Of a stretch of DNA of 64,000 nt, positions 9,506-50,134 are shown piece by piece. This stretch comes from an uncultured delta proteobacterium (GTDB lineage: Bacteria > Myxococcota_A > Polyangia > Polyangiales > Houyiibacteriaceae). The notes beneath the pieces are model-generated. The model was not told where the DNA came from, ran no database searches, and was given only the letters and a program-made list of their open reading frames with translations. The stretch is taken from the NCBI GenBank assembly GCA_963699755.1, contig CAVOVB010000001.1, positions 576,001-640,000 on the forward strand, given 5' to 3'. Position numbers and translations under genes: made by a program. Every line of letters starts with the position of its first letter. The stretch's first letter is position 1.

Positions 9506-10953
<1,448 letters not shown>

Positions 10954-10966
10954 GAGTCACTCCAAC

Positions 10967-11458: not shown

Positions 11459-11470
11459 TTTCAGAGACTT

Positions 11471-11529: not shown

Positions 11530-11538
11530 GGTAGGCCA

Positions 11539-13002: not shown

Positions 13003-13052
13003 GGGCAAAGCATAGATCAACCCGTTGGAGGCGCACATGGTCAGCGCTAGGC

Positions 13053-14270: not shown

Positions 14271-14320
14271 CGGAGCGTTGATGCTGGCGAAACCCGGCCT
14301 CCCGCCTTACATAGAGAGAG

Positions 14321-35424: not shown

Positions 35425-36726
35425 ATGACCGACTCCCAGCCAGCCCAGCTCAGCCGATCCCTTGGATTTTGGGCGCTCGTCTTCTACGGCGTAGGGGACA
35501 TCCTAGGCGCCGGGATCTATGCCCTGGTCGGAAAAGTGGCAGGCGTCGCCGGAAGCGCGAGCTGGGCGGCCTTTGGCGTCGCGCTCTTGGTCGCGGGCCT
35601 CACCGCCCTCACCTACGCCGAGCTCGGCGGCCGCTTCCCGCGAAGCGCCGGCGAGTCGTTCTTCACCGAGCAAGCGTTCGGTCGCCCTGGCCTGGCGCTC
35701 CTAGTTGGCTGGATCGTTCTCTGTTCTGGAATCCTCTCGCTGGCCACGGTCTCGGTCGCCTTCGGCGGCTACATGAGCGGGCTGGTTCCCTGGCTTCCAC
35801 CATCGCTCACCGTCGTCGGCATTCTCCTCTTGCTGGCGGCGATCAACTTCCGAGGCATACGAGAGTCGTCGACCACGAACATCGTCGCCACCATGGTCGA
35901 GCTGACGGGCCTGCTGATCGTGATTGTGGTCGGCGCCGTCTTTCTAGGGCGCACGCCCGACGCAAGCATCGCACAAACCATCGAAGCGGGCCGCACCGTC
36001 GGTTGGACGGAGATCGCATCTGGCGCGGCCCTCGGCTTCTTCGCCTTCATCGGCTTCGAAGACATGGTCAACGTCGCCGAAGAGGTGAGGGATCCAGAGC
36101 GCAACATGCCTCGTGCGATCCTGATTGCGCTTTGCGTCACGGGTTTGGTCTATTTACTGGTCGTCGTAGTCGCAACAAGTGTCGTCGCGCCGGCCGTGTT
36201 GGCCGACTCCGAAGCGCCCCTTCTCTCCGTGGTGCGTCGAGCCACCGACGTCGTTCCCGACCGACTGTTCACCTTGATCGCTCTCTTTGCAGTCGCCAAC
36301 ACTGGCTTGCTGAACTTCATCATGGGCTCCCGCCTGATCTACGGCATGTCGCGTCAGGGGCTGCTGCCTGCAGCGCTCGGCAAGGTGCACCTCAAACGCC
36401 GCACGCCGCACCTCGCGATCCTCTCGGTACTGGCAGTCGCGCTCGTCTTGGCGCTCTCGGGCACGCTTACCTATCTGGCAGGCACGACCAGCCTGCTATT
36501 GCTTCTGGTTTTCTTTACCATCAACGTCTCCCTCGTCACGATCAAGCGGCGCGATCGCGAGGCGCTGCGCACATTTTGCGCGCCTCGGCTGGTTCCGATC
36601 GCAGGCGCTCTGAGCTGCCTCGGGTTGATGCCGTTCGTGCCCACAGGATCGCTCCTAACGGCCGGAATCATCCTCGGCTTGGGTGCGAGTCTGGTTGCGG
36701 TACGCGGCGAGCGCCGGTCCGCCTAG
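35425..36726 (+). CDS. APC-family amino acid permease
   Basis: GDILGAGIYAL, YAELGGRFP, FFAFIGFE; about 12 TM segments. Confidence 0.93.
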   Translation: MTDSQPAQLSRSLGFWALVFYGVGDILGAGIYALVGKVAGVAGSASWAAFGVALLVAGLTALTYAELGGRFPRSAGESFFTEQAFGRPGLALLVGWIVLCSGILSLATVSVAFGGYMSGLVPWLPPSLTVVGILLLLAAINFRGIRESSTTNIVATMVELTGLLIVIVVGAVFLGRTPDASIAQTIEAGRTVGWTEIASGAALGFFAFIGFEDMVNVAEEVRDPERNMPRAILIALCVTGLVYLLVVVVATSVVAPAVLADSEAPLLSVVRRATDVVPDRLFTLIALFAVANTGLLNFIMGSRLIYGMSRQGLLPAALGKVHLKRRTPHLAILSVLAVALVLALSGTLTYLAGTTSLLLLLVFFTINVSLVTIKRRDREALRTFCAPRLVPIAGALSCLGLMPFVPTGSLLTAGIILGLGASLVAVRGERRSA

Positions 36727-36998
36727 TCGCCCTTGGGCTTCGGCCTCTCGGGCGGAAGCGAGGGCCGAAACTCAGCTTGTCGCAGGTCGATAATCACGAT
36801 GACCAGGAACAGCGCGAATGATAGCGTGCCAATACCTTGGCCGACCGACATTGCCATCATGACGGGAATCCAACCCTGGTCGAAAAGAGACCAGCTCATC
36901 AGCGCCAGGGCGATCAGGCCGAGCACGCAGGCGTATACCATCAGTCGCGACCGGGAAGCCGTATCGAGGAACTTCTCGATCTTGGCTCGAGCGTTCAT
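36723..36998 (-). CDS. Small two-TM membrane protein coupled to the NapC-like gene
   Basis: Two hydrophobic helices; ATGA overlap at 36995-36998. Confidence 0.7.
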   Translation of the reverse strand: MNARAKIEKFLDTASRSRLMVYACVLGLIALALMSWSLFDQGWIPVMMAMSVGQGIGTLSFALFLVIVIIDLRQAEFRPSLPPERPKPKGD

Positions 36999-37672
36999 CC
37001 GCCCTCCGGCGCTGGGGCCTGGAGCGCCGAATGAGCCGCGGCCTCCGATGGAGTTTCCTCGCCCGATTTGCTAAAAGGATGCGCGTATCCGTGGCAGCCG
37101 GCGCTGGCACAACTCGTTTGGTCGGTGCGCAGGTCGTCGAGAAGTCCGTTATGGTCCGCCACTTCGTTCCATACCTTGCCGGTCGTACTGTGACACTGCA
37201 TGCAGTTGTCGTTCTTGAAGGGTCGCGCGATGTGAATCTTCTCGATGACCTCGTCCCGGTCGTACCACATCCACTCGGAGACGAACTTGTACACGTGGCC
37301 CATGCCCCCGAGCTTGGTCATGGCGTAGCCGAACATCCCATAGTCCTTGTGGCAGACGTAGCAGCTCTCACCCCCGAACTTGTGGGTGCGAGAGTGAATC
37401 GCGGCGAGCGATTCGCTGCTCGGGTCGTTGGCGTCCTCGATCCACATGTCCATCGTGTGGCAGCTTCCGCAGAACCCTTGACGCTCGGTTGCGGCGAAGC
37501 CCTCCAGGTTGCCAATCATGGCAACCATGATGGGCAGCACGCCCACGCCAAGCAGCATCACCGACTTGCCCGCCGCATCGAGAGGCGGCCTCTTGACCAG
37601 GTAATAGAGCATGATGCTGGCCGCAACGACGGCACAAGCGAAAGCGATCCAAGACAGCGGCGATACGTGCAT
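36995..37672 (-). CDS. NapC/NirT-family tetraheme cytochrome c (quinol dehydrogenase, CymA-like)
   Basis: Two N-terminal TM helices; FCGSCHTM, CYVCH, CMQCH and atypical CASAGCH. Confidence 0.88.
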   Translation of the reverse strand: MHVSPLSWIAFACAVVAASIMLYYLVKRPPLDAAGKSVMLLGVGVLPIMVAMIGNLEGFAATERQGFCGSCHTMDMWIEDANDPSSESLAAIHSRTHKFGGESCYVCHKDYGMFGYAMTKLGGMGHVYKFVSEWMWYDRDEVIEKIHIARPFKNDNCMQCHSTTGKVWNEVADHNGLLDDLRTDQTSCASAGCHGYAHPFSKSGEETPSEAAAHSALQAPAPEGG

Positions 37673-38995
37673 GATTCAAGGGGCTCGTCACGTCCGTGGC
37701 GGTTCGAGCCCGATGAACATGATCCACGATCGGGTCGCAGTGCAAGTGGGCAGATCAGCCGCTCGAAGCATTGGCGGGTCGGCCTTGCCGCGGCCCTTGC
37801 ACTGACCATCCTAGCACCCTTTTCTCCGGCACTTGCCCAGCCCCACAGCGTGGGCGTCGAGGGCTGGGGGCAGCTCGACCCCAACGTCGGGCTGATCGTC
37901 GTCGAGGCGTCCACGCGCAAGTATCCGTACGTCGACGCCGAAGCGCTGATCTGGGGGGGAGCCGGATCGCCTCAGTACGGCCTGCGTGACAATGAATTCA
38001 CCTTCGAGGCGCTCGTGGCGACGATCAAAGTGAGGGATCCAAAGGGGATCAGCGACGCCAGACTGGGCCGGTTCATCCTTGCAACGGGCGCGGTGCGCGC
38101 CCAGCACGTCGATGGCGGGCATTTGATCCTGCGCGCGCCCTCCAAGACCCACTTCGAATTCTTCGGTGGGGTGCCCGTCGACGGGAACATCGAAGGCCGC
38201 AGCTACGACTGGATAGCAGGGGGCCGGGTCTCCCAGGGGCTCGGCAAAATTGGGGTCCTCGGCGGCTCGTACTACAACCGGTACAACGCCGGTCAGCGCT
38301 CCGATGAAGAGGTCGGGGTCGATTTCTCGCTACGAGCCGCGAGCTGGCTCGACATGGCGGCCAAGTTCTCGTGGGAGATCGTGAACCCGGGCCTTGCCGA
38401 AGTGCTTGCGACCATTTCTTCGCAAACCAACAATCGGAAGTTTCGCGCCGAAGTTTTCGCGAGCAAGCGCAACGTCACCCGCCTCCTGCAACAGACCTCG
38501 CTGTTCACCGTGCTCGGGGACCCGGGAATCTTCGCGACCGGCGCAAATCTCTTCTGGCGTGCTGCGCCACGGCTCGACTTGACAGTGGAAGGGGCCGGGC
38601 GGCAGGCAGAAGACCAATGGGGCTGGAGCGGGTACCTGCGTGGGCTCCTCCGCACCGACGACGAAGGCAAGGGGAGCGTCCTCGGTGAGCTGCGGCGCAT
38701 GCAAGTCGCCACGGCTCGCTGGACGGGGATCCGCCTCGCTTCGGTCATCCAGCTCTTCGAGGACGTCCAGCAGAGCGTGGGCCTGATGCCTGAATTCGAG
38801 GTCATCATTCCCGATGACCGCAACTCCATGACTGGCAGGGCCTGGCCCTGGGGTCGGCTCGCGCTCCGATACCGGCACCAAAGCGGTTGGTCCTTCGCGG
38901 CGGCGGCCGAAGCGAGCGCCAACCAGGTCCAACGACTCGACGTGCGAGGGCTGGCGCGCGTCGCTTTTCAGCGTACTTGGCACGGTCAGCAATGA
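37667..38995 (+). CDS. Predicted outer-membrane beta-barrel (porin of a porin-cytochrome complex); start uncertain
   Basis: Signal-like LAAALALTILAPFSPALA followed by about 390 aa of alternating amphipathic strands, no heme motifs. The nearest in-frame canonical start upstream of the signal is GTG 37667. Confidence 0.7.
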   Translation: MHDSRGSSRPWRFEPDEHDPRSGRSASGQISRSKHWRVGLAAALALTILAPFSPALAQPHSVGVEGWGQLDPNVGLIVVEASTRKYPYVDAEALIWGGAGSPQYGLRDNEFTFEALVATIKVRDPKGISDARLGRFILATGAVRAQHVDGGHLILRAPSKTHFEFFGGVPVDGNIEGRSYDWIAGGRVSQGLGKIGVLGGSYYNRYNAGQRSDEEVGVDFSLRAASWLDMAAKFSWEIVNPGLAEVLATISSQTNNRKFRAEVFASKRNVTRLLQQTSLFTVLGDPGIFATGANLFWRAAPRLDLTVEGAGRQAEDQWGWSGYLRGLLRTDDEGKGSVLGELRRMQVATARWTGIRLASVIQLFEDVQQSVGLMPEFEVIIPDDRNSMTGRAWPWGRLALRYRHQSGWSFAAAAEASANQVQRLDVRGLARVAFQRTWHGQQ

Positions 38996-40050
38996 AACAG
39001 ATCGTCGCCATCGCAGCCCTGATCCTGCTTGCCGCCTGGTCGGGAGCCTGCGCCAAGATGCTCGGCCTCGATCGAGAAGAACAGGACCACCCTTTTGAGC
39101 ATCGCGCGCACGTCATCGAGGGCATCAATTGCTTGGAATGTCACGGGGGGATTCAAGAGACTGGAGACACCGGACCGTTACATTTTCCGACGACCGCAGA
39201 CTGCGTCGAATGTCACGAGGAACCCCACAATCCAGATACTTGCTCCGACTGCCATGGGCGCGCGAGAAATCGTCAGGCGGCAGAAATGGCTCGCAAGCAT
39301 CTGCGCTTCTCGCATCTGACGCACAGCGAAGAAGGCGCCGGTGACTGCGTGCGATGTCACGTCAACGTGACCAGCAATTCCGACTACGTTCGGGTCAAGC
39401 ATCCGACGTGCTTTAGCTGTCACGCGCACAAAGGCCAATGGGACACACGTGACTGCGGTGGTTGTCACGTCGATCTGCCCGGCGAGATGGCTCCGCCCGA
39501 GAGCCACGTCATCCACGACGGCAACTTCCTGCGCGAGCACGGCGTGCAGGCGAACGCGCAGGGCGACCTCTGCACCGCTTGCCACACCCAGCGCCAATGC
39601 GCCGCCTGCCACGGCGTGACCGTGCCCACGATCCCCTCACGATTTCGTTTTGATGACCCTATGCGGGATTCGATGCACCGCGCGAACTTCATCTCGGTCC
39701 ATGACCAGCAGGCCGTCGCCGACCCCGCGCAGTGCATCGTCTGTCACAGCGAGCTCTTCTGCGTCGACTGCCACACGAGGTTGGGAATCTCAGGCCAGAA
39801 TCCGGTTCGCGGGAATCCGCATCCGCCCGGCTGGTCGGGCCCGCCGGGCTCGTCGAATACCCATGGGCAAGCGGCCCGCCTCGACCCGCTCTCTTGCGCG
39901 AGCTGCCACGGCGGCGCCGGCGAGACCCTCTGCGTGAGCTGCCATCAGGTCGGCGGACCAGGGGGCAATCCACATCCGCCGGGCTTCAATAGCCGCTTGA
40001 GCAAAGCCAACGATCTCCCGTGTCGGCTCTGCCATATCGGAGGACTATGA
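38992..40050 (+). CDS. 13-heme c-type cytochrome, probable lipoprotein
   Basis: SGAC lipobox-like motif; 13 CxxCH counted; ATGA overlaps at both ends. Confidence 0.92.
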   Translation: MKQIVAIAALILLAAWSGACAKMLGLDREEQDHPFEHRAHVIEGINCLECHGGIQETGDTGPLHFPTTADCVECHEEPHNPDTCSDCHGRARNRQAAEMARKHLRFSHLTHSEEGAGDCVRCHVNVTSNSDYVRVKHPTCFSCHAHKGQWDTRDCGGCHVDLPGEMAPPESHVIHDGNFLREHGVQANAQGDLCTACHTQRQCAACHGVTVPTIPSRFRFDDPMRDSMHRANFISVHDQQAVADPAQCIVCHSELFCVDCHTRLGISGQNPVRGNPHPPGWSGPPGSSNTHGQAARLDPLSCASCHGGAGETLCVSCHQVGGPGGNPHPPGFNSRLSKANDLPCRLCHIGGL

Positions 40051-41561
40051 AGCGAGCCGCCATCCTCGTCGGGATCTTCGCCGCGCTCGGAGTCGTGGCC
40101 GGCTTTCTCGTTGCGAGGCTCAGCACCGACGTCTTCCCGACGATGAAAGAACAACGCAATGCCGGGCCCACCCGGACGGTGCCGAAAAACTGGCCCCAAG
40201 TTCGCCTGTCTCCGGGGCACTCTCAGCACATCATCAACGAACGGGTCAAATGCGACGAATGTCATGACCCCGCCGACGAGACCTTTCGGGCTCCCGACAC
40301 CGGGGTATGCACCCAATGCCACGAAGAGCAGGCGTCGTTGGCGCACGTCAACCTCGATGGCACGCCGATGGACTGTTACACCTGCCACATCTTCGGCGCG
40401 GAACCCGAAGTGTTCGGGCGATGGCACTGCACGCGCTGCCACGGGCCGTTCCAAAGCGATGGCATGGAAGGCCTCGCCATGCACAACACCGTGCCATGCG
40501 AGACCTGCCACAACCCGCATAAGGCCATCGACGAGACGATTCGTGAGTGCGGCGAGTGCCATGAGAAGATGAATCTGCAGCATGGCCAAACGAAACTCAG
40601 CGGAACATGCGCCGATTGCCATGGAGGGCATCAACTCGCTACCGATGCAGCGTCGTGTTTGAGCTGCCACGCGACGAAGTCGCCGATCGTTCCTGCTTCT
40701 GCGACCTTTGGAGGGGGACATGATTCATGCGCAGACTGCCACAAGGCTCATGCGTTTTCGGCAGAGAGCGCACTGCGGTGCAACTCCTGCCACGCGGGCG
40801 TGCGCGTGCTTGCGCAGAGCTCCGCGCCGGAGCACCGCGATTGCACGAGCTGTCATTCACCCCACGACGTGCGCGCAGCGGGAGATCAGTCCTGCAAGGG
40901 GTGCCATCGAGATGTGGCTTCGACCCATGCCGCACAGAGCACCAAGGACTGCGTCGGATGCCACGAGCCGCATCCGCAGCGTGTCGCGCAAATCGCGCTG
41001 CAGTGCTCGAGGTGCCACGAGGAGGCTAGCTCGGAGCGAGCGTTTCACGCCGGAAACATTCCCTGCACCGGTTGCCACGAGCCCCATCGATTCGACCTCA
41101 GCGGCCTCAGCGATCGCGCCCTGTGCAGGCGGTGCCACGTCGCTCAGGTTCGTCTAACCCGTCGAAATTTGGGGCATTCCAGCTGCTCGGGCTGCCATCA
41201 GGGAACGGTGCACGAGCCCGCTGGAGTTCTGACCTGCGGCAGCTGTCACGAAGAGAAGCTCGCGCGAAGCCCGGCTGGCCACCGTGAGTGCGCGTCGTGC
41301 CACGAGCCGCACGGCGGCACGGTCTCGGCACAAACCAGTTGCACGGGATGCCACAAGGTTGCGCAGCTACCGGGGCTGCACCGCCTGGCCGACGTGCCGA
41401 TCGGTGAGGGCCACACTAAGTGCGCGGCTTGTCACGACATTCACGAATTGAAGGTTCGCGCCGGCCGCGCAGACTGCATGACCTGCCATGAGGACGTCGC
41501 CGATCACCAACCCGATGCCAAGGTCTGCACGGGATGCCATACATTCATCCGCGCCCGTTAG
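40047..41561 (+). CDS. 23-heme c-type cytochrome with N-terminal signal/anchor
   Basis: 23 CxxCH counted in 504 aa; recurring CxxCHxPH units. Confidence 0.93.
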   Translation: MKRAAILVGIFAALGVVAGFLVARLSTDVFPTMKEQRNAGPTRTVPKNWPQVRLSPGHSQHIINERVKCDECHDPADETFRAPDTGVCTQCHEEQASLAHVNLDGTPMDCYTCHIFGAEPEVFGRWHCTRCHGPFQSDGMEGLAMHNTVPCETCHNPHKAIDETIRECGECHEKMNLQHGQTKLSGTCADCHGGHQLATDAASCLSCHATKSPIVPASATFGGGHDSCADCHKAHAFSAESALRCNSCHAGVRVLAQSSAPEHRDCTSCHSPHDVRAAGDQSCKGCHRDVASTHAAQSTKDCVGCHEPHPQRVAQIALQCSRCHEEASSERAFHAGNIPCTGCHEPHRFDLSGLSDRALCRRCHVAQVRLTRRNLGHSSCSGCHQGTVHEPAGVLTCGSCHEEKLARSPAGHRECASCHEPHGGTVSAQTSCTGCHKVAQLPGLHRLADVPIGEGHTKCAACHDIHELKVRAGRADCMTCHEDVADHQPDAKVCTGCHTFIRAR

Positions 41562-42803
41562 TCAAAACGGAGGCAGCGTTCGAATCTTGATCGCGACGCC
41601 GAGCGTGAGAATGAGAAGTAGCAGCGTGCTGATTGCAAGCCCCCGGCGTCGGCCATCGAACGCTCGCAGCTGCGCGTATCCCACCTCCAATGCGGCCGCT
41701 TGGTTCTGGGAGATTTCGGAGACTTTTTCCTCCATCACGGGCTTCGAGAACGCATGAATCAAGGTGCGGGCCTGAAGGAGGCCCTGCCGCGCTGCCTGCT
41801 CGTAATCCTCTGCTTCGGTGACGTCCATGCCCTTCGTCTCGGCTTCGGCGAGCAAGTCATCGATCTCGTCGAAAGATCGTCGAACTGAACCGAGCGTATC
41901 GGCGTAGTAAAGTGCGAGATCCGATCCTTCATCACCGGTTTCGTGGCACTTGCGGCACGCGCCATCAGGCTCGTCGGCGAGCCAGTCGTCGGACACATGC
42001 GTGATGAGGTGCTTTCCGTGACATGCCACGCAGTCGGCAAGCGATTTCTCCTTGAAGTCCGGGGCCAAGGGACTCCCTAGAAACAGCTCGGCGTTGTAGC
42101 TGTGGCACGTGCCGCAGATGTTGCTGATCGCATCGATCGACGGAGGAGCCGCGCCGTGGTTGCCGTGGCAGTCATTGCAGGCCGGTGCCCCGCGCACGTC
42201 GTGCTTCTCGAGGAGCGCCTTTCCATGGACGCTCTGGGTGTACTCTTCGTATTGATCGGTTGGAATGTCGAAATCGCTCATGTACTCCGCGTCAGCGTGG
42301 CAATGCGCGCATGTCGCCGGAACGTTCTCGGCATAGACCGGCGACTTGGCATCGTTGACTTCCCGCACTCCATGGGCGTGATGGCAGCTCACGCACTGGG
42401 CCACTCGAGTTTCTCCCTTGGCGAGAAGCTTTCCATGCACGCTTGTCCTGTACTTCTCGAGCTGATCGATCGGCAAGAGCGGCTTGCGCGCCTTCATGTA
42501 CCCGATATCAGCGTGACAGCCGCCGCACGAGAGGACGATTTCTTGCGCAGAAAGTGTGCCACGATAGTTGGTGCCGCGACGTTTGGCGAGATGACTGTCC
42601 CCCTGCGTCGGATCGCCGCCGTGACATGCATCGCATCCAATTCCGGCATGCGCATGGACATCGTCCTGCCATAGCTCAGCCACCCCGTCATCGGTGGTGA
42701 GATGGCATTCCAGGCACTTGCCTCCAGGAAGCTCCTCGGCGCTTGCGCTCGAAGCAAGTGCGACAGACAACACGATCAGAGCGGAGACAAAAACGTTCTT
42801 CAT
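41562..42803 (-). CDS. 9-heme c-type cytochrome with C-terminal membrane anchor (c subunit of the Rieske/cyt b complex)
   Basis: Signal ending ASA; 9 CxxCH; helical stalk and C-terminal TM; ATGA overlap with cytochrome b. Confidence 0.9.
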   Translation of the reverse strand: MKNVFVSALIVLSVALASSASAEELPGGKCLECHLTTDDGVAELWQDDVHAHAGIGCDACHGGDPTQGDSHLAKRRGTNYRGTLSAQEIVLSCGGCHADIGYMKARKPLLPIDQLEKYRTSVHGKLLAKGETRVAQCVSCHHAHGVREVNDAKSPVYAENVPATCAHCHADAEYMSDFDIPTDQYEEYTQSVHGKALLEKHDVRGAPACNDCHGNHGAAPPSIDAISNICGTCHSYNAELFLGSPLAPDFKEKSLADCVACHGKHLITHVSDDWLADEPDGACRKCHETGDEGSDLALYYADTLGSVRRSFDEIDDLLAEAETKGMDVTEAEDYEQAARQGLLQARTLIHAFSKPVMEEKVSEISQNQAAALEVGYAQLRAFDGRRRGLAISTLLLLILTLGVAIKIRTLPPF

Positions 42804-43885
42804 GCGAAGTGCCCCCGATAGGTCATGATCGAGAGGAACAACAGTGCGGCGATGCCCGCAATCATGACGATGGTGGTGACCCGGCGACTCCGCCCTGTGT
42901 CGATCCACGGAACCAAGCACCAGAGGAGCCCGCCAAACGAAATCATCAGCAGCCCGAGCTTTTCTCCTTCAATCGGCCCGACATGGGCGGGCATGTATTT
43001 GAGAAACTCGAAGGTGGCGAGGAAGTACCACTCGGGCTTGATGCCCGCAGGAGCGGGAGCAAAGGGGTCGGCCTCGACGCCGAGCTCGGCGGGAAAGAAC
43101 ACGGCCAAAGCCGCCAACACGTTCAGCGTGATCAACCAGAACAGCAGCTCGCGCATGAAGAAGTGCGGGAAAAACGGCATCGTCTTCCGGCGGTCTGGCT
43201 GCGTTTCCCATACCTGCGGCTCGTGGATCCCCTGAAGCTGGATGAAGAAGAGATGGCCCGCGACGAAAAGGGTCAGCAACGCCGGAAAGAGGGCTACGTG
43301 AAGTGCGAAGAAACGGGGCAGCGTCGAACCCGTGACGTCTTCGCTACCACGCAGCACGTACATGATGGGCTTACCGATCAACGGGACGACCCCGACGATG
43401 TCGGTGCCCACTTTCGTTGCAAAAAAGGCGAGCTCGTTCCATGGCAAAAGATAGCCGCTGAACCCGAAGCCGAACAGAATCACGAGGAGCACGATCCCGG
43501 AGAGCCAGGTGAGCTCACGCGGCTTTCGATACGCGCGCATGAAGAACACGCTGAACATGTGGATGCACGCAGAGAGGATCATCAGGTTCGCCGACCAGGC
43601 ATGCACCGATCGAATGAGCCAGCCAAACGGAACCTTGGCGGAAATGAATCGCACGCTCTCGAAAGCCGTGTCGGCGCTTCCCTTGTAGTAGAACATCAAC
43701 ATGATTCCCGTTCCCACCTGAATGAGGAACAGAAAGAGCGTGATGCCACCGAAGTAGTACCAAAACGCGCCCCTGCCGACCGGCACGGTCTTGTGCTTGG
43801 CCCACTCCTGAAACTGCGCGATGGGGTAGCGGTCTTTTGCCCAGCCGAAGAAGGAACGCTTAGGATTTCTGGGTGACATAGACAT
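42800..43885 (-). CDS. Cytochrome b of a bc-type complex (PetB/QcrB family)
   Basis: RSVHAW...IHM and FFALH...GHL heme ligands, GYLLPW, IKPEWYF (Qo site). Start may be 43879. Confidence 0.95.
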   Translation of the reverse strand: MSMSPRNPKRSFFGWAKDRYPIAQFQEWAKHKTVPVGRGAFWYYFGGITLFLFLIQVGTGIMLMFYYKGSADTAFESVRFISAKVPFGWLIRSVHAWSANLMILSACIHMFSVFFMRAYRKPRELTWLSGIVLLVILFGFGFSGYLLPWNELAFFATKVGTDIVGVVPLIGKPIMYVLRGSEDVTGSTLPRFFALHVALFPALLTLFVAGHLFFIQLQGIHEPQVWETQPDRRKTMPFFPHFFMRELLFWLITLNVLAALAVFFPAELGVEADPFAPAPAGIKPEWYFLATFEFLKYMPAHVGPIEGEKLGLLMISFGGLLWCLVPWIDTGRSRRVTTIVMIAGIAALLFLSIMTYRGHFA

Positions 43886-44291
43886 CGTCCCCCTGCGTGT
43901 GCACTTCGAGGGCGTCCAGCGGCCGCGGCGGCGGGCCCGACACGTTGGTTCCGTTCAAGTCATAGACCCCGTTGTGACAGGCACACCAGATGTCCTCTTT
44001 CTCGGAGCGGTACTGCACCGTGCAATCGAGGTGGGTGCACTGGGCGAGATATGCAGCGAAGTTACCGTCGGGTCGGCGCACCAGAAGGGCCGGCTTTCGG
44101 CCAAACTTGAACACCTTCCCCGAGTTCGGCTCCATTTCCGTGAGCGTCGTTGCCTTCACCGAAGAAACCGCCGCTTCTTGCTCAGGGGGCGGGCTCAAGA
44201 AACGAAGCACCGGATAGATGACCGAACCAAGCCAGGCGAAGGTGCTTCCCCCGAGAAACCAATTGAGAATCGACCGCCGGTCAAACTTCAT
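43860..44291 (-). CDS. Rieske 2Fe-2S subunit (PetA/QcrA family)
   Basis: Tat-like DRRSIL, CTHLDC, CACHNGVY, GPPPRPL. Confidence 0.95.
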   Translation of the reverse strand: MKFDRRSILNWFLGGSTFAWLGSVIYPVLRFLSPPPEQEAAVSSVKATTLTEMEPNSGKVFKFGRKPALLVRRPDGNFAAYLAQCTHLDCTVQYRSEKEDIWCACHNGVYDLNGTNVSGPPPRPLDALEVHTQGDDVYVTQKS

Positions 44292-44353
44292 CAGGCTCGC
44301 CTCTCCGCCAACTGCGGCCGAGCCTATCGGATTTCGCGACCGAATCGCAACGA

Positions 44354-45415
44354 TTATCGAAACGCGTCGACGCGTCCGTTGATATGCGGAGCTTCGATGG
44401 TCAGCCGAGTACCGGCGGCGTTGATGCCCACGTGGCAGTTGTTGCATGCGATCTTCGCGTGGCCCACCGGCGGATTCTGGTGGCAGGAGTTGCACTCCAG
44501 TGCGAGCCCCTCTTCATCCCAAGCGACGACAGGCGTGGTGCCACCGCGCACATGGCAGCTGGTGGCGCAGACACGGGTCTCGGGATCGTAGCTCGCGTCG
44601 GGTCCCCAGGCGGGCTGGAAGACCACGTCGATGTCACCGTTGGCGTGGCGTCCGCCGAGCATCGAGTAGTCCTCCCCGAAGTGGCACGCCTGGCAGTCGA
44701 GGCCGCGCGGGTTGTTCGCTGAGGACTGCACGTGAGGCGCATGAGCGTAGCCCGCGGGTGGCCCAGGAAAGTAGCACTGGTCTCGCGGCGGATAGGGACG
44801 CAGGCCATCTCCGTGGCAGGTTCCGCACGCCATGACACCACCCGGTACGTCGTGACAATCGGTGCAATCGGTGGCGCCAGGCGGGTAGATGGTCACCTCC
44901 TCGACCGGCGCCGGTGACCCCGCATGACAAAGACCACAAGCATCAGTCCGCTCGGAGTCGATGATGGGCTGCCAGTCGGTCTCTCCCAGGTAGCTGCCGT
45001 GCCAATCGGCGGCACGCGGATCGGTCCACTGGCCAGGGTGGGTGCTTCTCGCATCGGGAAAAGCGCCGTCGCTGACCCAGGTCCTCAGGGTAAACGCATC
45101 GTCGGCATCGAGCAGGTCCGAGTGACTCGGCTCCTGAAGCACGGCGAGGATCGGCGCCATCTGATCAGGCGGCGAGGTCGCCGGCTGCCCTTCGGGGTCG
45201 GGGATACATCGGATGGTCGTGAAATAGTCCTCGACCCGATAGTCAGCTTCCGCGCCTGGGCCGCTGTGGCACCCCAAGCAGCGCTCTTGGAGAATCGGAT
45301 TTACATCCGCAAACACGACCGGCGGTTGGTCGCGATCGCGCGCCTCGTTGCAGCCAAGAACCGCAACGTTGAACCACACGAGCCCGGCAAGCCAAACGCT
45401 CGTCCCGCCCCTCAT
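44354..45415 (-). CDS. Multiheme cytochrome c lipoprotein (7 CxxCH + 1 CxxxCH)
   Basis: VLGC lipobox; paired CATSCH...CNSCH with H-x-NG repeats as in Geobacter-type CxxxxCH/CxxCH domains. Confidence 0.88.
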   Translation of the reverse strand: MRGGTSVWLAGLVWFNVAVLGCNEARDRDQPPVVFADVNPILQERCLGCHSGPGAEADYRVEDYFTTIRCIPDPEGQPATSPPDQMAPILAVLQEPSHSDLLDADDAFTLRTWVSDGAFPDARSTHPGQWTDPRAADWHGSYLGETDWQPIIDSERTDACGLCHAGSPAPVEEVTIYPPGATDCTDCHDVPGGVMACGTCHGDGLRPYPPRDQCYFPGPPAGYAHAPHVQSSANNPRGLDCQACHFGEDYSMLGGRHANGDIDVVFQPAWGPDASYDPETRVCATSCHVRGGTTPVVAWDEEGLALECNSCHQNPPVGHAKIACNNCHVGINAAGTRLTIEAPHINGRVDAFR

Positions 45416-47499
45416 GGCGCGGGGGGGTTGGGCAGTAGGTTGGCATGGCAGGTGCCGCACGCGTTGGTGAAAGCGACAGGCTGCTCAAGCGGCTCACCAA
45501 CCTCCCGCCAACGGGTCATCGTCAACCGATGGCTCGCGATGTCGTTCCAGAAGTACTGGACGGGCAGCGATACGCTCGAGCCTGGATCGAAAAGCGCGGG
45601 CACTCCTGCGCCGGAGCGGGCGGTCGGCACCAGATGGCAGTCGGCGCAGAGGAGCCCGAATCCGGTGTGGACCGTATTGCCGGTCGCGAATTGGACGTGA
45701 GCATCCAAGTTGCCCGATTCCGCCAAATCGCTGTGGCAGGTGGTGCACAGAGCGTTGGGATTGCCCGAGGTGTCCGTGGAAGCGATGTCGGCATCGTTGG
45801 CGTGCGGGCTGTGGCAGTTCGTGCAAGATACGAGCCTGGATCCGTTTCGGTAGTGCTTCGATTCTAGGTGTCCGGAGTACTGCTGATAGTCCGCCCGCGG
45901 GTCGCCTGAGGCATAGAAGTCATCCGGCGCGCCGCTGACGCGCGACGTATGAAGGAGGGCGAAATCGCGACGGCGGATACCGGCCGGCGGCATCTCGTCA
46001 TCGGCCGAGAGCGGCAACCCGGTCATGCCCCCACCGATGCCGAGGGGTCGCGAGTGGCAGGTTCCGCAAAGCGCCGCCCGGCGACCCGGAGTCAAGAGCC
46101 CGGGGGACACCATGAACCTGCCATTCGGGCTTGGCGTCAGATGGTCCGAACCCGGGCCGTGACACGACTCGCAGCCGACGTTGATGAGCTCCAGCCTACC
46201 GTCGCCGTCATAATCAAACGCACCAGCCGAATCGACGACGGCGCTCGCAGACCAACCGTCCGCCTCGCTACCGCTCAGATCGTAGCCCGTGAAGTGACAG
46301 CCCGCACAGTTGTTGTCGAAAGACTCGCCTGAGGGAGGTGAGAAGTCCGGATCACGAAGTAGGTCGGAGCTGAAGTCGTACCAAAGGTCGGATCGGTAGT
46401 CGCGCCAGGGCCAGTCATTCGAGCTGCCGTTGCCCGGAAGGCTCCCGTTGTCGAAGTCGCCCTCGTAGTTGTATTGCATGGGGAGCAGGAAGTAACTGAG
46501 GCTGCCGTCCCTGTTGCTCCGGCGCGCTAGATACTGTTGCGTGCCCAAGGCTCCTCCGTAGGTGAGGACGACATCGTAGCTATGCGTGGGCTGCGCGTTG
46601 ACGAGATTCTCTACTTCAATGAAGTAGGCGCCGATCGCGCCGACCGGCTTGTTTGAGTCCCGCCGCAAGTCGATTCGAAATCTCGTGCTTGAGCCCGGAT
46701 CCTGAATCTGCACCTTGCAGCTCGACGGATCGGCATGCGTCGAGGCCGACGCATCGCAATCGTAGTAGTAGAGGGACGTGCCCGCCTCGAACGCCGCCAA
46801 TCCGGCATAGAAACCAGGCCAAGGCTCGACGTCTTGCAAAATCGAGGGCGCACCTGGTACCTGAAGGCCTACGTTGTGCGCGGTTCGGGAGGTGGTGTTG
46901 AGGGCATGACAGCCCAAACAGGTCGATGAGCCGACGTAGGTTGCTCGCTCGCTCGGCTGAGGGCTCACGCGGATGTCCAGCTGCATGCCGATCAGTGACG
47001 CAGTATCGATGGCGACGCTGCTGTTGTCACCGCCTGGCAAGTGCACGCTGTCATCCTCCGCGGGTGTCCAAACGACGAAGTAATTTCCCTCGGGAAGCGT
47101 TTCGAACCGGTATTCGCCGGATTCGTCGACCGCGGCCTGCTCGTAGTCTGCGCCGGCGTCGAGGAGGTCTTCGATCGGTTCGTCGACTTCGAGCATCGCA
47201 GTCGCCTCCGGCGACAAGGAGATATCGATCCGCGTCTCCGACAGCGCCTCGACGTCGCTTGCAGGCACGAGGTAGACAGTGCCGCCGGGCACCGGGAGCA
47301 TGCTCGGCTCCATGACCCGGCCCACCAAGCCCTCCAGCTCGGGATCGATCCCAGCGTCCGGCGTCGCTCCTGGAGGCCCTTGTGGCCCCTCCGGGCCCTC
47401 TGGCCCTTGCTCGCCCGTGTCACCCTTGCAGGCGCCGATCATGAGACATGTGCAGACGAGAAGCGGGAGCCACGAGAACCGTGAGATGGAAAGCATCAT
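45412..47499 (-). CDS. 8-heme cytochrome c lipoprotein with collagen-like linker
   Basis: IGAC lipobox, GDTGEQGPEGPEGPQGPPG, YVGSSTCLGCH, VGCESCHGPGSDH; 8 CxxCH. Confidence 0.9.
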   Translation of the reverse strand: MMLSISRFSWLPLLVCTCLMIGACKGDTGEQGPEGPEGPQGPPGATPDAGIDPELEGLVGRVMEPSMLPVPGGTVYLVPASDVEALSETRIDISLSPEATAMLEVDEPIEDLLDAGADYEQAAVDESGEYRFETLPEGNYFVVWTPAEDDSVHLPGGDNSSVAIDTASLIGMQLDIRVSPQPSERATYVGSSTCLGCHALNTTSRTAHNVGLQVPGAPSILQDVEPWPGFYAGLAAFEAGTSLYYYDCDASASTHADPSSCKVQIQDPGSSTRFRIDLRRDSNKPVGAIGAYFIEVENLVNAQPTHSYDVVLTYGGALGTQQYLARRSNRDGSLSYFLLPMQYNYEGDFDNGSLPGNGSSNDWPWRDYRSDLWYDFSSDLLRDPDFSPPSGESFDNNCAGCHFTGYDLSGSEADGWSASAVVDSAGAFDYDGDGRLELINVGCESCHGPGSDHLTPSPNGRFMVSPGLLTPGRRAALCGTCHSRPLGIGGGMTGLPLSADDEMPPAGIRRRDFALLHTSRVSGAPDDFYASGDPRADYQQYSGHLESKHYRNGSRLVSCTNCHSPHANDADIASTDTSGNPNALCTTCHSDLAESGNLDAHVQFATGNTVHTGFGLLCADCHLVPTARSGAGVPALFDPGSSVSLPVQYFWNDIASHRLTMTRWREVGEPLEQPVAFTNACGTCHANLLPNPPAP

Positions 47500-47590
47500 C
47501 CGGATAATATGCAACCGGGGCAGGCCTTCAAGCGAAGACATGCCCCGGACCGCTGTTTCTGGGCTTCGATGGCCCTATGCGTCCCGCTGG

Positions 47591-50134
47591 CTAAGGCCGA
47601 GTGACGCTCGGTGTCCCACCCATTTTGACGATGGAATCGACGAGGATCTGCTTGATGTAGGCCCCGTTGTGTATGTACGCGCCTGGGTCCTTCGCGGCCA
47701 CCTGGTAGTTGTAGGCCGCGGTCAGCATGTCGAAGTCGAAGTCGAGGTATCGGTTGGGATAAATCGCTGGCACGCCACCCTTGAACCAGTATGGGTAGGC
47801 GACCGGGTCGTACTGCACCGGCGAGTCCTTGGGCAGCCCCGTAGAGGGATTGCCCGTTGTGGCGTACGCCTGGATCGCTGCCAGCAGCTCGGCTTTCAGG
47901 GTCTCAATGTCTTCGAAGTTCGTGTTCAGCGAGCCGCTCATCGTTGGGAAGCTGCTGCCAATGTGGCAGCCGTTGCAGTCCGCGACCTTGGGCAAGAAGG
48001 TATGCTTCTTGTCCTGGGCGTCGTCGGCGTTCATGTGACAGCCGATACAATCGATGAGACCCGCAGCAATCGGCAGCTGCGTGTGTGTAAGGAAGCGGTT
48101 CTTACCGAGGTAGCTCTCTCCCTCATACTGGTATCCACCCCGCACATCGTTGCCGAAGAAGGTCGCCCCGACGGCATAGTAGTGGATATTGATGAAGCTG
48201 TAGGAATCGTAATCCTCGTTCTCACCGTTTGGCACCGCTGCATTCACACTATCGGTCGAGGCATTGCCCTGGTGACAGGTGATGCAGATGTTGCTGGCGT
48301 TGTTGAGCGTAGCTGTCTCGCCAGACGGAAACGCGACCGGTTCGAGCCGTGGGTTGGTGCCGACGGCGGCATAGCGCGTCTCCGCGTTGGCGAAGAGGTT
48401 CGGATCGTTGTGACAGGATGTGCAACCCACCGCAGTCAAGGGCAGCTGGGGAGTCAGTGACCCACCCATCGCGTAGATGCCGAAGCCGTTGGCGTTGTGG
48501 CACTTCGTGCACGTGGCCTCCACCTCGAGCTCCGGATCCCAGTGACGGAAGACCTCGGAGCCGGAGTCGCCATGGCCGCTGATCTGCCATTGCTCGGTCT
48601 TGGAGGCCGATCCAATGGCCGAGCCGTCGAGCGTCAGGTTGCCTCGACCGATCACCGGGACGGCGGAGGTTCCACCGAGGTCCACGATCGAATCGTACAG
48701 GATTTGCTGGAGGTAGGTCCCGTTGTGGATGAACCCATTCGGGTCTTCCTGGGTGACCTGGTAGTTGTACGCAGCAGAAAGAAGGGCTGCATCGAAGTCT
48801 TCGTACGCGTTGGAGCGGCCACAAGCCATCCCGTTGTCGTAGCAGAATCGGCCGTCATAGATGATGGGCTCTCCGATGACGGTGTCTGCGTAGTCTTGGA
48901 TCTCCGCATAGAGCTCTGCCTGCAGTGCCTGAATGTTGTCGTAGTTCCGCTTGGGCGAGCCGTCGAGCGTCTGGAAGCTCGTGCCGCCGTGGCAGTCGAT
49001 GCAGGTGTCGACAGCCGGGATCCAGGTGTGATTCTCGCCGTTCTCGGCGTTGGTCATGTGACAGCCCTCGCAGGTCGACAGATCATCGGGGTGCGATGGG
49101 AAGGTGTTGCGGGTGACGTACTCGTTGCCCTCGTACTGATACCCTGGATTGGCTTCACTTCCGAACAAGCTTGCAGCCGCGCCAAAGTGGTGGATGCTGA
49201 CGGCCTCGTACGGCCCTGGGCCCGCGTCGATCTCCTGCTGCACTGACCTGCCGGACTCACGCCCCTGGTGACAGACCAGGCACATGTTGCTGCTGCCAAA
49301 GAGTGAGAGGTGCGCATCTTCGGGGAGCTCGTCCACGGGAAACTGCACGGGCTCGAGCGCAGCGAAGGACGGGTTATAGTAGCTCGAGGGCGAGCCGGTG
49401 TGGCAAGCCACACACTCGAGACCAAGTGACGGCGCGTTGGCTTGAGTCACCAGACCGTCAGGCGCATAGTCGAGGAAACCCGCCGCGGAGTGGCACTGGG
49501 CGCAACCGGTGGAAACGGGGCCCGGATCAAAGCGACGCCACGTTCCTGCTGTCAAGTCGCCGTGTCCGCTCGTTGCCCACTGCTCGTAGATCTCGGACGC
49601 GGGTCCACTGGCTAGGGTGTAGCCTTCGGACTCCTCGCCTGTGTCTGCGGGAGAGGGAGCACCGCCGGCGCCACCTGCACCGCCCGCGCCGGAGGCGATC
49701 GCTCTAAACTTCAGCACTGTGGTCTCGGTGAGCGTGATCGGCCCGGCGTACGCTGGGCTCGGGTTGTCAGGGTCTGCAGGGTCGACGTCCGTGAGATCGG
49801 TGGTGAAGTAAATGGTCGCGCCAGCGCTCTCGGGTCCGCTGGCGATCAGCCTGACCGTGATGTTTGGATCGAACGTCCTCCCGGAGGGATCCGCATTGAC
49901 GCAGAGGTCTTCCACGCACGCGGGGATGCTGCCGCCCGTGCCGCCCGTGCCGCCTTCGCCGCCGCCGCCGCTACCCGCAGAGCCACCGCTACCCGCGGAG
50001 CCACCGCTTCCTGCGGAGCCGCCGCTTCCCGCAGCGCCGCCGCCGTCGTCGGAGCTACAACCCATCACTGCGACCGTGAACGACAACATCGCGAACAACA
50101 CGCAACGCGAAACCAAAGACTTATTCATTTGCAT
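47591..50134 (-). CDS. 10-heme cytochrome c lipoprotein built from two tandem pentaheme modules
   Basis: VMGC lipobox, Gly/Ser linker, CHB_HEX_C/Fn3-associated-like domain (ATIYFTTD...TVLKFRA), two modules of 5 CxxCH each ending AAYNY...IHNG.Y..Q.L.DSI. Confidence 0.92.
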   Translation of the reverse strand: MQMNKSLVSRCVLFAMLSFTVAVMGCSSDDGGGAAGSGGSAGSGGSAGSGGSAGSGGGGEGGTGGTGGSIPACVEDLCVNADPSGRTFDPNITVRLIASGPESAGATIYFTTDLTDVDPADPDNPSPAYAGPITLTETTVLKFRAIASGAGGAGGAGGAPSPADTGEESEGYTLASGPASEIYEQWATSGHGDLTAGTWRRFDPGPVSTGCAQCHSAAGFLDYAPDGLVTQANAPSLGLECVACHTGSPSSYYNPSFAALEPVQFPVDELPEDAHLSLFGSSNMCLVCHQGRESGRSVQQEIDAGPGPYEAVSIHHFGAAASLFGSEANPGYQYEGNEYVTRNTFPSHPDDLSTCEGCHMTNAENGENHTWIPAVDTCIDCHGGTSFQTLDGSPKRNYDNIQALQAELYAEIQDYADTVIGEPIIYDGRFCYDNGMACGRSNAYEDFDAALLSAAYNYQVTQEDPNGFIHNGTYLQQILYDSIVDLGGTSAVPVIGRGNLTLDGSAIGSASKTEQWQISGHGDSGSEVFRHWDPELEVEATCTKCHNANGFGIYAMGGSLTPQLPLTAVGCTSCHNDPNLFANAETRYAAVGTNPRLEPVAFPSGETATLNNASNICITCHQGNASTDSVNAAVPNGENEDYDSYSFINIHYYAVGATFFGNDVRGGYQYEGESYLGKNRFLTHTQLPIAAGLIDCIGCHMNADDAQDKKHTFLPKVADCNGCHIGSSFPTMSGSLNTNFEDIETLKAELLAAIQAYATTGNPSTGLPKDSPVQYDPVAYPYWFKGGVPAIYPNRYLDFDFDMLTAAYNYQVAAKDPGAYIHNGAYIKQILVDSIVKMGGTPSVTRP
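49935..50045 (-). repeat. In-frame 18-nt tandem repeat encoding a (GGSAGS)n linker
   Basis: ccgctacccgc(a/g)gagcca-type units encoding GSGGSAGSGGSAGSGGSAGSGG. Confidence 0.85.

Follow-up and report, generated by a model that had tools for sequence, protein, structure and literature searches.

Examination of a 64,000-nucleotide stretch of DNA (hereafter the window) from an uncultured bacterium revealed a cluster of 11 contiguous genes (Table 1) that, judging from sequence and structural models, most likely encodes an electron conduit with 75 hemes in a myxobacterial group without known extracellular electron transfer. The cluster is probably a porin-cytochrome system through which menaquinol electrons reach the cell surface and serve the anaerobic respiration of extracellular acceptors, for which metal oxides, humic matter or partner cells are proposed. 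The DNA comes from a member of the Polyangiales (Myxococcota), in agreement with an original prediction that had tentatively placed it in Polyangia from its letters. Uncultured myxobacteria are usually regarded as aerobic predators and degraders; if the conduit reading holds, minerals, humic matter or other cells would serve them for respiration or electron exchange.

Table 1. Genes of the cluster, with positions in the window.
Positions	Strand	Product	Basis or remark
36723..36998	-	2-TM protein, 91 aa, no His, no Pfam	constant napC partner; probable accessory membrane subunit
36995..37672	-	NapC/NirT/NrfH-family tetraheme quinol dehydrogenase, 2 N-terminal TM	PF03264
37667..38995	+	predicted 22-stranded plug-free outer-membrane beta-barrel	AF2 and fold matches
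38992..40050	+	13-heme lipoprotein, predicted barrel-threading	lipobox, CxxCH count, complex model
40047..41561	+	23-heme cytochrome, N-terminal hydrophobic helix	CxxCH count; homologues
41562..42803	-	9-heme cytochrome c, signal peptide and C-terminal TM anchor	c-subunit, accessory Rieske/cytochrome b cassette
42800..43885	-	cytochrome b, unsplit, 8-TM	PF00033 and PF00032
43860..44291	-	Rieske [2Fe-2S] protein, twin-arginine signal	PF00355
44354..45415	-	8-heme (7 + CX4CH) lipoprotein, Geobacter CxxxxCH/CxxCH domain	TIGR01904
45412..47541	-	8-heme lipoprotein, collagen-like stalk, +2 Lys	variable member
47591..50134	-	10-heme lipoprotein, two pentaheme repeats; candidate surface terminal reductase	AF2, Foldseek

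All 11 predicted open reading frames were found in place, and a recount of the 73 CxxCH and two atypical motifs (about 75 hemes) gave 73 CxxCH (3 in the NapC-like protein, then 13, 23, 9, 7, 8 and 10 in the order of Table 1) and two CX4CH sites, in the NapC-like protein (amino acid 188) and in the 44354-45415 lipoprotein. In six frames, CxxCH occurs 73 times in the 13.4-kb island and once in the remaining 50.6 kb of the window, with a mean of 0.59 and a maximum of 4 in 100 base shuffles. The genes form three transcription units: napC diverges from the barrel gene with a 6-nt head-to-head overlap, and the converging units do abut at 41561/41562. ATGA overlaps had been described at most junctions and are present at five of the eight co-directional ones (2-TM/NapC, barrel/13-heme, 13-heme/23-heme, cytochrome b/9-heme and 8-heme/8-heme); Rieske and cytochrome b genes overlap by 26 nt, and the two other junctions are gaps of 49-62 nt. 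The GC content of the island (59-64% in 2-kb bins) is the same as that of the rest of the window, so that "island" here means a gene cluster and not compositionally foreign DNA. A permease gene flanks the cluster.

The barrel and the 13-heme lipoprotein are the invariant core of the locus, the remaining genes being exchangeable modules. The AF2 model of the 37667-38995 product (pLDDT 87.9) is indeed a barrel, with 22 strands, no plug and long loops on one side. Its top fold matches are all barrels of the outer-membrane type, including FyuA (Z 18.0, rmsd 4.8, 344 aligned) and MtrB (Z 14.9, rmsd 5.2, 328 aligned, 6% identity in the structural alignment). The start codon is uncertain, with GTG at 37667 and a non-canonical ATC at 37754 as the two candidates, and the mature protein begins near 37838. 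Within the host's genus, 30 of 36 genomes contain the barrel. It matched no Pfam or NCBIfam family, and homology-based screens would therefore miss it; none of 13 distant barrels matched an NCBIfam family, and a cluster look-up of 10 distant barrels returned no cultured organism among the named members.

The 13-heme protein has 352 amino acids (333 when mature, 27 per heme) and a lipobox Cys at 39049 that is invariant in 59 of 59 alignment rows. Its 13 CxxCH motifs are kept in 65 of 66 homologues, and strong orthologues occur in 65 of the 301 sampled Myxococcota genomes. Pairing was scored in a sample of 128 loci, about five of which overlap another locus; nine lay too near a contig end and four had no barrel match. 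The 13-heme gene is directly downstream of the barrel in 113 of the 115 others, and the last two carry both in one reading frame; one of them, L187, is a fusion whose junction shows no lipoprotein signal. The predicted complex agrees with the proposed porin-cytochrome pairing: it scored 0.85, against 0.00 for the best of three controls. That mark is attained in 116 of 157 solved complexes and in 2 of 215 mismatched pairs, although these numbers apply only approximately to self-made alignments. The runs shared at least 89% of contacts with a partner pLDDT of at least 73, and the modelled contacts involve alternating residues of most barrel strands plus the long loops. The score may partly reflect the solved MtrAB architecture. 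The 13-heme lipoprotein is predicted to thread the barrel lumen, with c7-like N-terminal hemes in the periplasm. This two-gene core is small enough for direct expression and testing.

These observations bear on the idea that the cytochromes are a periplasmic electron store, or capacitor, at oxic-anoxic boundaries, the barrel mainly anchoring or exporting them. The 75 hemes, the inner-membrane-type signals of two members and the facultative respiratory gene set of the genome would suit such a store, but the modelled 13-heme protein fills the lumen and reaches the outer loops, heme number and barrel adjacency are invariant, and a barrel-cytochrome fusion occurs. Storage is moreover compatible with a conduit, and as the main function of the cluster it seems very improbable.

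On the inner-membrane side, the NapC-like protein (PF03264, 36.5 bits, cut-off 24.1) combines three CxxCH and one CX4CH with an N-terminal TM anchor, a 3+1 motif pattern found in 72 of 73 full-length homologues. It is the sole PF03264 match in the genome, where no NapA or NarG genes were found and NrfA gave weak partial matches only, none typical; no other client is evident for it. The 2-TM gene adjoins napC in 16 of 21 long distant loci, all 21 of which hold NapC, 13-heme and 23-27-heme genes together (about 35-55% identity). The 23-heme cytochrome (21.9 amino acids per heme; homologues with 23-26 CxxCH) has no lipobox and is not a lipoprotein; it is probably an inner-membrane-anchored periplasmic wire. 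It is among the more variable members (51-78% identity within the genus), which might, if anything, speak against a buried relay.

Three further lipoproteins are encoded in the converging unit. The 44354-45415 protein matches TIGR01904 with 41.8 bits (cut-off 27), and its relatives carry 12-36 hemes; the 45412-47541 protein is absent from 3 of 15 same-genus loci, and a sequence search with it gave no solved relative. The 10-heme protein, which may resemble OmcB of Geobacter, consists of a Gly/Ser linker, an Fn3-like domain and two pentaheme repeats (a doubled OcwA/OmhA/NrfA fold). The AF2 model of its C-terminal repeat (pLDDT 93) contains the pentaheme core and three-helix bundle of OcwA/OmhA-type reductases. 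OcwA is the best Foldseek match (E 7e-4, TM 0.49). By VIA, however, it ties with NrfA and an octaheme nitrite reductase, the Z values differing by no more than about 1 (12.2 for NrfA, 12.1 for OcwA), and OmhA reaches 11.1. The fold modelled here and shared with the surface reductases OcwA (PMC6703420) and OmhA argues for a conduit and makes the protein a candidate surface terminal reductase.

The same tie could be read in favour of a conduit or periplasmic chain dedicated to a substrate that is soluble or toxic (nitrite, hydroxylamine, S(0) or selenite). The enzyme would then be the 10-heme lipoprotein, and NapC would play the part of NrfH. The NapC-like protein matches the NrfH model weakly (32.8 bits, cut-off 134.2), a typical NrfA is missing from the genome, and the porin, Rieske and cytochrome b cluster extH-S of Geobacter affects selenite and tellurite reduction. 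An NrfA-type nitrite reductase was nevertheless rejected for the 10-heme protein: CxxCK occurs in 0 of 78 rows, a KxRH or KxQH string, which we take to be an NrfA motif, anywhere in only 4 of 78, PF02335 did not match, and the profile of the 10-heme protein reached solved NrfAs at only about E 1e-3. CxxCH-type NrfAs exist, according to PMC10716430, and OcwA itself reduces nitrite slowly. The 10-heme gene is also replaceable, with 50-69% identity within the genus and other cytochromes in its place in relatives, unlike a dedicated enzyme, and a soluble anion requires no 13-heme plug inside a porin. Searches of the cluster proteins gave no molybdo-enzyme or oxidase Pfam/NCBIfam domain and no CxxCK, in line with the original prediction, and no soluble-substrate terminal reductase was found in the cluster or the related loci examined. 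We regard a dedicated system of this kind as improbable.

In Myxococcus xanthus, Ala at +7 is described as a matrix signal and Lys at +2 as an inner-membrane signal (PMC3222651). None of the four cluster lipoproteins has the former, and the 45412-47541 protein carries the latter, as do 8 of 12 cleanly parsed homologues; some cluster lipoproteins may therefore face the periplasm.

The Rieske/cytochrome b/9-heme cassette is an accessory part of the locus. Cytochrome b has His95, His109, His196 and His211 and a PEWY motif, with no Cys at what we take to be the heme ci position of b6-type proteins. The Rieske boxes are CTHLDC and CACHNGVY, the Gly of the latter standing where high-potential Rieske proteins presumably carry Ser, and the protein appears to be of menaquinol type. 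The 9-heme gene is always accompanied by Rieske and cytochrome b genes in same-genus loci, but the cassette occurs in only 9 of 16 same-genus islands and a cytochrome b orthologue in 12 of 36 same-genus genomes. It follows a different phylogeny and is found again next to related conduits in three other genomes, which makes the presence of two quinol interfaces optional. The complete two-interface island thus stands as far as its 11 genes are concerned, but is one configuration of a mosaic locus and not a conserved system: all 11 are present in 6 of the 15 same-genus loci seen end to end. Presence and absence of the cassette among close relatives offers a natural comparison of how quinol oxidation is matched to acceptor potential.

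The rest of the genome bears on the direction of flow. Maturation genes for heme c, expected elsewhere in the genome, are there (3 PF01578 matches), together with menB, heme-copper oxidases (5 COX1-family matches) and NO reductase-like and NosZ-like genes. Such oxidase, NO reductase-like and NosZ-like genes might be served by inward flow. Fe(II), reduced humics, conductive minerals or partner cells would then donate electrons through the 13-heme/barrel pair, NapC or a reversed Rieske/cytochrome b complex would reduce quinone, and O2, NO or N2O reduction would be fed. We consider this unlikely. A menaquinone pool (menB) and a menaquinol-type Rieske favour outward flow, and a search for RuBisCO in the host genome found none. 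Descriptions of Fe(II) oxidisers in PMC5566968 and PMC4245776 report no Pcc-type clusters, whereas CymA-type proteins are described as able to work as quinone reductases (PMC6295460), PCC3 clusters with similar 21-heme periplasmic wires have been proposed for uptake (PMC5566968), and the genome couples its oxidases and NosZ-like gene with the lack of NapA and NarG.

In the preferred outward conduit, the NapC-like tetraheme protein and its 2-TM partner would oxidise menaquinol, a role suggested by family, and the anchored 23-heme protein would relay electrons across the periplasm. The 13-heme lipoprotein would have its lipid anchor in the inner leaflet of the outer membrane and pass through the barrel; in the model, approximately hemes 1-5 are periplasmic, while hemes 6-13 occupy the lumen and extend past it. 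The CxxxxCH and OcwA-fold 10-heme lipoproteins may then take electrons at the surface, the weakest step. The cassette could be an optional second entry, gained by lateral transfer and swapped between lineages; with a high-potential acceptor, it would contribute a proton-translocating Q-cycle.

More tentatively, and with some doubt, these loci might represent an unrecognised phylum-wide family in which a lipid-anchored 13-heme protein within a 22-stranded barrel is wired to the inner membrane by an anchored 23-34-heme protein and served by plug-in quinol entries. No soluble shuttle would then operate between inner membrane and barrel; NapC would serve low-potential acceptors, and the proton-pumping cassette high-potential acceptors or reverse uptake. 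Quinol modules would be traded among lineages, the genus often having both and switching by redox potential, and about one fifth of sampled Myxococcota genomes would be electroactive by a route that current porin models miss.

Conduits that unite porin, cytochromes and quinol modules in one locus are known from earlier work on Geobacter extH-S (PMC5877670) and Rhodoferax mtr (PMC6295460). The Geobacter extHIJKLMNOPQS cluster likewise has Rieske and cytochrome b genes beside those for a porin and several multiheme cytochromes, and its loss is reported to leave Fe(III) reduction unaffected; its porin ExtI has 12 predicted strands (PMC5877670). The rhodanese (ExtH) and selenoprotein (ExtKL) are absent here, cytochrome b is unsplit, and Ext model scores stayed below their cut-offs (ExtP 201 bits for cytochrome b, cut-off 290; ExtQ 24, 150; ExtM 15, 800). 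In Rhodoferax ferrireducens, the mtr cluster includes mtrH and two copies of cymA, and it resembles ours in having several quinol interfaces in one locus (PMC6295460). MtrAB/MtrCAB with CymA of Shewanella (PDB 6R2Q) also threads a cytochrome through a barrel and uses a NapC-family quinol dehydrogenase. Membership in MtrAB/MtoAB was rejected: there is no MtrB-family match, the barrel has 22 strands against 28 predicted for MtrB (PMC4245776), and the 13-heme protein has 13 hemes, not 10, falls below the DmsE/MtrA cut-off and does not match TIGR03508 at E 0.01. No MtrC orthologue accompanies it.

The PCC3/PCC4 clusters of He et al. (2017) likewise combine a porin with an inner-membrane redox protein and a periplasmic cytochrome that binds about 21 hemes at few amino acids per heme; their PCC3 porins are described with up to 42 strands (PMC5566968). 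The 23 hemes at 21.9 amino acids per heme fit the PCC3 periplasmic cytochrome, assuming a periplasmic location, but NapC takes the place of the 5-TM di-heme inner-membrane protein, whose SGxxG and Wx3Hx13H motifs gave 0 matches in the 2-TM protein, NapC, cytochrome b and flanking permease. OcwA (6I5B) and OmhA (6QVM) of Gram-positive metal reducers share the pentaheme core, three-helix bundle and CxxCH at the first heme with the 10-heme protein, which differs in its tandem duplication, Fn3-like domain and diderm lipoprotein form (15-19% identity). A second family, with 13-14 hemes, a weak barrel match and no other cytochrome, comes closer to the description of Pcc group IV. Pcc systems (OmbB-OmaB-OmcB) pair porins of 18-22 predicted strands with multiheme partners of 5-14 hemes, and the group IV partner of Anaeromyxobacter (338-344 amino acids, 12-14 hemes) has been suggested to cross the membrane by itself (Shi et al. 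2014, PMC4245776). By description, our 22 strands, 352 amino acids and 13 hemes in the same phylum are most like group IV; the published group IV clusters are given without outer-membrane cytochromes (PMC4245776), whereas our 13-heme protein is itself a lipoprotein, encoded together with NapC, a 23-heme wire and three additional lipoproteins.

Reexamination of the cluster confirmed the eleven genes and the heme counts of the original prediction, with 73 CxxCH and 2 CX4CH motifs; the rest of the window holds a single CxxCH (mean of 0.59 in 100 shuffles). Three transcription units can be distinguished: (i) a minus-strand unit made of napC and the 2-TM gene, (ii) a plus-strand unit coding for the barrel, 13-heme and 23-heme proteins and (iii) a minus-strand unit coding for the 10-heme protein, the two 8-heme proteins, the Rieske protein, cytochrome b and the 9-heme protein. 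ATGA overlaps were found at five of the eight co-directional junctions. Housekeeping genes identified with Pfam (amino-acid permease, enolase-family enzyme, patatin) flank the cluster, and promoter and terminator scans gave numbers close to chance (5 vs 2.2 and 10 vs 9.3, respectively). Contigs from an RNA run containing 0.06 of the sampled words (86 contigs at ≥85% identity, most <95%, over all 30 bins and the flanks) were set aside because they derive from relatives without a silent control, and so indicate neither transcription nor habitat. A 174-amino acid membrane protein without a known family adjoins the cluster end in most same-genus loci (76-99% identity). A suf-type Fe-S assembly run (SufB/C/D/S/U-like, Rrf2 regulator, second cysteine desulfurase and IscA-like), named from translated starts and one Pfam match, lies 22-30 kb from the cluster.

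Coordinates of the features discussed (window positions unless a homologous locus, L, or a contig of the host genome, C, is named)
Feature	Position	Strand
2-TM gene	36723-36998	-
napC	36995-37672	-
Barrel gene	37667-38995	+
napC-barrel start region	37667-37760	
ATC in barrel start region	37754	
13-heme gene	38992-40050	+
23-heme gene	40047-41561	+
9-heme gene	41562-42803	-
Cytochrome b gene	42800-43885	-
Rieske gene	43860-44291	-
CxxxxCH 8-heme lipoprotein	44354-45415	-
Second 8-heme lipoprotein	45412-47541	-
10-heme lipoprotein	47591-50134	-
174-aa membrane protein	50378-50902	-
suf-type run	6286-14665	
Single barrel-13-heme frame	L187:9803-12403	-
Exported ~240-aa protein	L110:8249-9049	+
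Host relative of the ~240-aa protein	C2:797809	
Further multiheme cluster	C1:1796337-1801996	
Further multiheme cluster	C7:196703-204724	
Borderline barrel-profile match	C1:1802233	
Rejected NrfA candidate	C7:414289	

No Pfam or NCBIfam family matched the product of the barrel gene. Its AlphaFold2 model, built from 70 sequences, has 22 antiparallel strands and no plug domain (mean pLDDT of 87.9), and its best fold matches are all barrels, including FyuA (Z 18.0, rmsd 4.8, 344 aligned) and MtrB (Z 14.9, rmsd 5.2, 328 aligned), at identities of 12% or less. Because of this model and these matches, the beta-barrel initially proposed remains the predicted structure. Chains of the OmbB/ExtB type, absent from the barrel fold matches, may still be kin. 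For the barrel, all clusters returned by the ESM Atlas were unnamed Myxococcota ones, with a recognition value under the mark of the tool; those returned for the 10-heme protein were generic and of the c7 type.

A total of 128 loci were fetched, of which 115 have a barrel match and sufficient downstream room. The 13-heme cytochrome is encoded by the next gene in 113 of these, an adjacency that extends to other families whose barrels are merely 22-27% identical (20/20 loci). The other two carry barrel and cytochrome in a single reading frame. One of them, L093, retains the lipoprotein signal and may have lost a stop codon. Judging from its sequence, the 866-codon frame of L187, in which the heme domain follows the last strand after a short linker that lacks both a signal and the lipobox Cys, is a probable natural barrel-cytochrome fusion; it is a single case, since no second fusion was found in 37 genomes of its family. 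Thirteen CxxCH motifs are present in 65 of 66 full-length homologues of the 13-heme cytochrome and the lipobox Cys in 59 of 59.

The predicted complex of barrel and 13-heme cytochrome scored 0.85, and the best of three controls 0.00; among solved complexes, 116 of 157 attain this mark, as do 2 of 215 mismatched pairs, although these figures are only rough for alignments made here. At least 89% of contacts agreed between runs, with a partner pLDDT of at least 73. Since the predicted contacts involve alternating residues on most barrel strands as well as long loops, the model reads as a 13-heme protein threading through the barrel lumen. Residues 131-328 (hemes 6-13) are those in contact, with residue 170 at the periplasmic half and residues 184-190 at the outer half, provided that the barrel has its N- and C-termini in the periplasm, as is usual. 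The hemes of the N-terminal part, similar to c7 domains, would remain in the periplasm. As MtrAB is a solved complex of similar architecture, the pass may in part mirror it. Models and conservation support the predicted barrel and its pairing with the 13-heme cytochrome, and these two genes are the invariant core. Weighed between the abundance of hemes in the cluster and this conserved pairing, a function in electron storage appears very unlikely.

Head-to-head starts of napC and the barrel gene share a common hexamer (RTGCAT). In the window, no ATG, GTG or TTG is found upstream of the barrel signal peptide, and there is an ATC whose aligned codon is ATG in two relatives and ATC or ATT in most. 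The spacer is open in the barrel frame, and in 23 of 25 distinct relatives its length differs by a multiple of 3. Two elements within it, CATG(A/G)T and GCAAG, are conserved. Either the barrel gene uses a non-canonical start codon or its product carries a leader of 55 residues.

Among 301 sampled Myxococcota genomes, the barrel profile matches 41 and the broader 13-heme profile 110 (E 1e-40), 65 of which form a strong tier (≥228 bits, counted from the match list). The barrel occurs in 30 of 36 same-genus genomes and in 3 of 24 genomes from the rest of the order. All 21 long distant loci contain NapC, 13-heme and 23-27-heme genes, accompanied by the CxxxxCH lipoprotein (20/21), a single-repeat relative of the 10-heme protein (17/21) and the 2-TM gene (16/21); Rieske, cytochrome b and 9-heme genes were found in none of them. 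Twelve weak-tier loci (L161-L172) constitute a second, more distant family, with a 13-14-heme protein (27-32% identical), a weak barrel match in nine and no other cytochromes. The lipobox is missing in all three of these 13-14-heme proteins whose sequences were inspected.

Recurrent neighbours in 36 distant loci are PAS histidine kinases, sigma-54 regulators, Usp proteins, transporters and an exported protein of unassigned family. Recurrence of the kinases, the sigma-54 response regulators and the Usp genes beside the distant conduit loci (L092, L103, L107, L110, L112 and neighbours) suggests redox or oxygen control. The expectation that no soluble reductase is linked to the cluster was borne out, none of the 24 scanned neighbour representatives being a molybdo-enzyme or oxidase; the ORF filter retained 493 of 4497 frames, and 286 singletons lay outside the annotation. 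An exported protein of ~240 amino acids that has a Pro-rich linker and belongs to no Pfam family is encoded at L110 and 24 other distant loci, adjoining the 2-TM/napC genes in most Polyangiaceae-type ones, and has a 37% identical relative in the host genome.

The NapC of the cluster is the sole one in the genome. The 23-heme protein reads as an inner-membrane-anchored wire, since it combines a hydrophobic N-terminal helix with the absence of a lipobox and 22 residues per heme. Of the two quinol interfaces originally proposed, both are present in the window, but the second is optional: the Rieske/cytochrome b/9-heme cassette occurs in 9 of 16 same-genus loci, and genome-wide searches found its cytochrome b in 12 of 36 same-genus genomes. 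Cassette presence differs between sister loci, its position is different in L029, and its tree conflicts with that of NapC, barrel and 13-heme protein (10 taxa; AU tests of the exchanged topologies gave p of 2e-9 and 5e-52). The nearest outside homologues (58-65% identical) are labelled Bdellovibrionota, Fidelibacterota, Ignavibacteriales and Zixibacteria; other Polyangiales cytochromes b are 28-40% identical and cluster separately. The cassette was likely gained laterally, and the second interface is optional and mobile. Its link to the conduit is not accidental, because a divergent Rieske-cytochrome b-9-heme set with a 33-34-heme gene adjoins barrel/12-13-heme pairs in three other genomes (L175/L194, L173/L181 and L189). 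BLAST of the window NapC gave no match in these genomes, two of which have unlabelled 3+1-heme ORFs some kb away.

The Rieske protein has a Tat signal and a Gly where high-potential clusters typically have Ser; cytochrome b has PEWY, the four His residues and no Cys at the heme ci position. A menaquinol-oxidising Q-cycle complex feeds only acceptors above the Rieske potential, and NapC-type proteins serve low-potential acceptors. The ImcH/CbcL pair of Geobacter is a known parallel for such a split (PMC6295460).

The C-terminal repeat of the 10-heme protein gave a predicted fold with a pLDDT of 93. Foldseek placed OcwA on top (E 7e-4, TM 0.49), and VIA-align tied NrfA, OcwA, octaheme nitrite reductase and OmhA (Z 11.1-12.2; the best unrelated structures scored below 5). 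CxxCK was found in none of 78 rows of the 10-heme protein, nor was there an NrfA Pfam match, and a PDB sequence search with the 10-, 8- and 9-heme proteins returned no solved relative and one low-complexity match. OcwA is described in PMC6703420 as a surface reductase of the same fold with CxxCH active hemes. Placed between the nitrite reductases among these folds and the missing CxxCK, a soluble-substrate role is improbable. Within the genus, the 10-heme and second 8-heme proteins are 50-79% identical, vs 68-94% for the 13-heme protein, in agreement with the fast change of Geobacter cytochromes reported in PMC12977616. The +7 Ala that marks matrix lipoproteins in Myxococcus is missing from all cluster lipoproteins, and a Lys at +2, as in inner-membrane lipoproteins there, is present in the second 8-heme protein; both features would speak against surface location, by rules of another order that may not apply here.

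The host genome (5.35 Mb, 100% complete, 9% contaminated) carries heme-c assembly genes elsewhere, together with menB, five COX1-family matches and a NosZ-like gene below the model cut-off. Searches of the genome gave no NapA or NarG and only weak partial NrfA matches, one NrfA candidate proving wrong; the eight molybdopterin matches, neither NapA nor NarG, all lie away from the cluster. Several near-identical pairs of respiratory genes on C1 and C7 (molybdopterin proteins, COX1-family, NorC-like) are consistent with the contamination. Two further multiheme clusters, with up to 29 CxxCH per ORF, are unrelated to this barrel by profile, bar one borderline match.

We consider it fairly probable that the cluster is a conduit from menaquinol to an extracellular acceptor and that the Rieske complex is a further point of entry. 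Electrons would pass from menaquinol to NapC, the 23-heme wire, the 13-heme protein in its barrel and the surface lipoproteins before reaching the acceptor, and the Rieske complex would provide an extra energy-conserving entry. We infer the relay order, surface exposure, acceptor and direction. The same parts could run inward, a reading that seems rather unlikely in a genome whose searches gave no RuBisCO.

Among the literature matches listed, subscription papers being outside their scope, none describes this locus. In bioRxiv 10.1101/2022.03.26.485925, Myxococcota are at the top of the ranking for novel EET cytochrome clusters, and the supplements of that paper, PMC11475568 and PMC5566968 may already include these proteins. 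The arrangement is not categorically new, because it is preceded by Geobacter extH-S, with porin, cytochromes, Rieske and cytochrome b in one locus (PMC5877670), and by a single Rhodoferax mtr cluster with several quinol interfaces (PMC6295460). On the features tested, the cluster falls outside Mtr, PCC3 and extH-S. In size it is nearest to Pcc group IV of Anaeromyxobacter, compared by description only, with an 18-22-strand porin and a 338-344-amino acid cytochrome of 12-14 hemes (PMC4245776). The weak-tier family, with 13-14 hemes and no further cytochrome nearby, fits that published description, and the cluster itself would work like the MtrAB and Pcc conduits.
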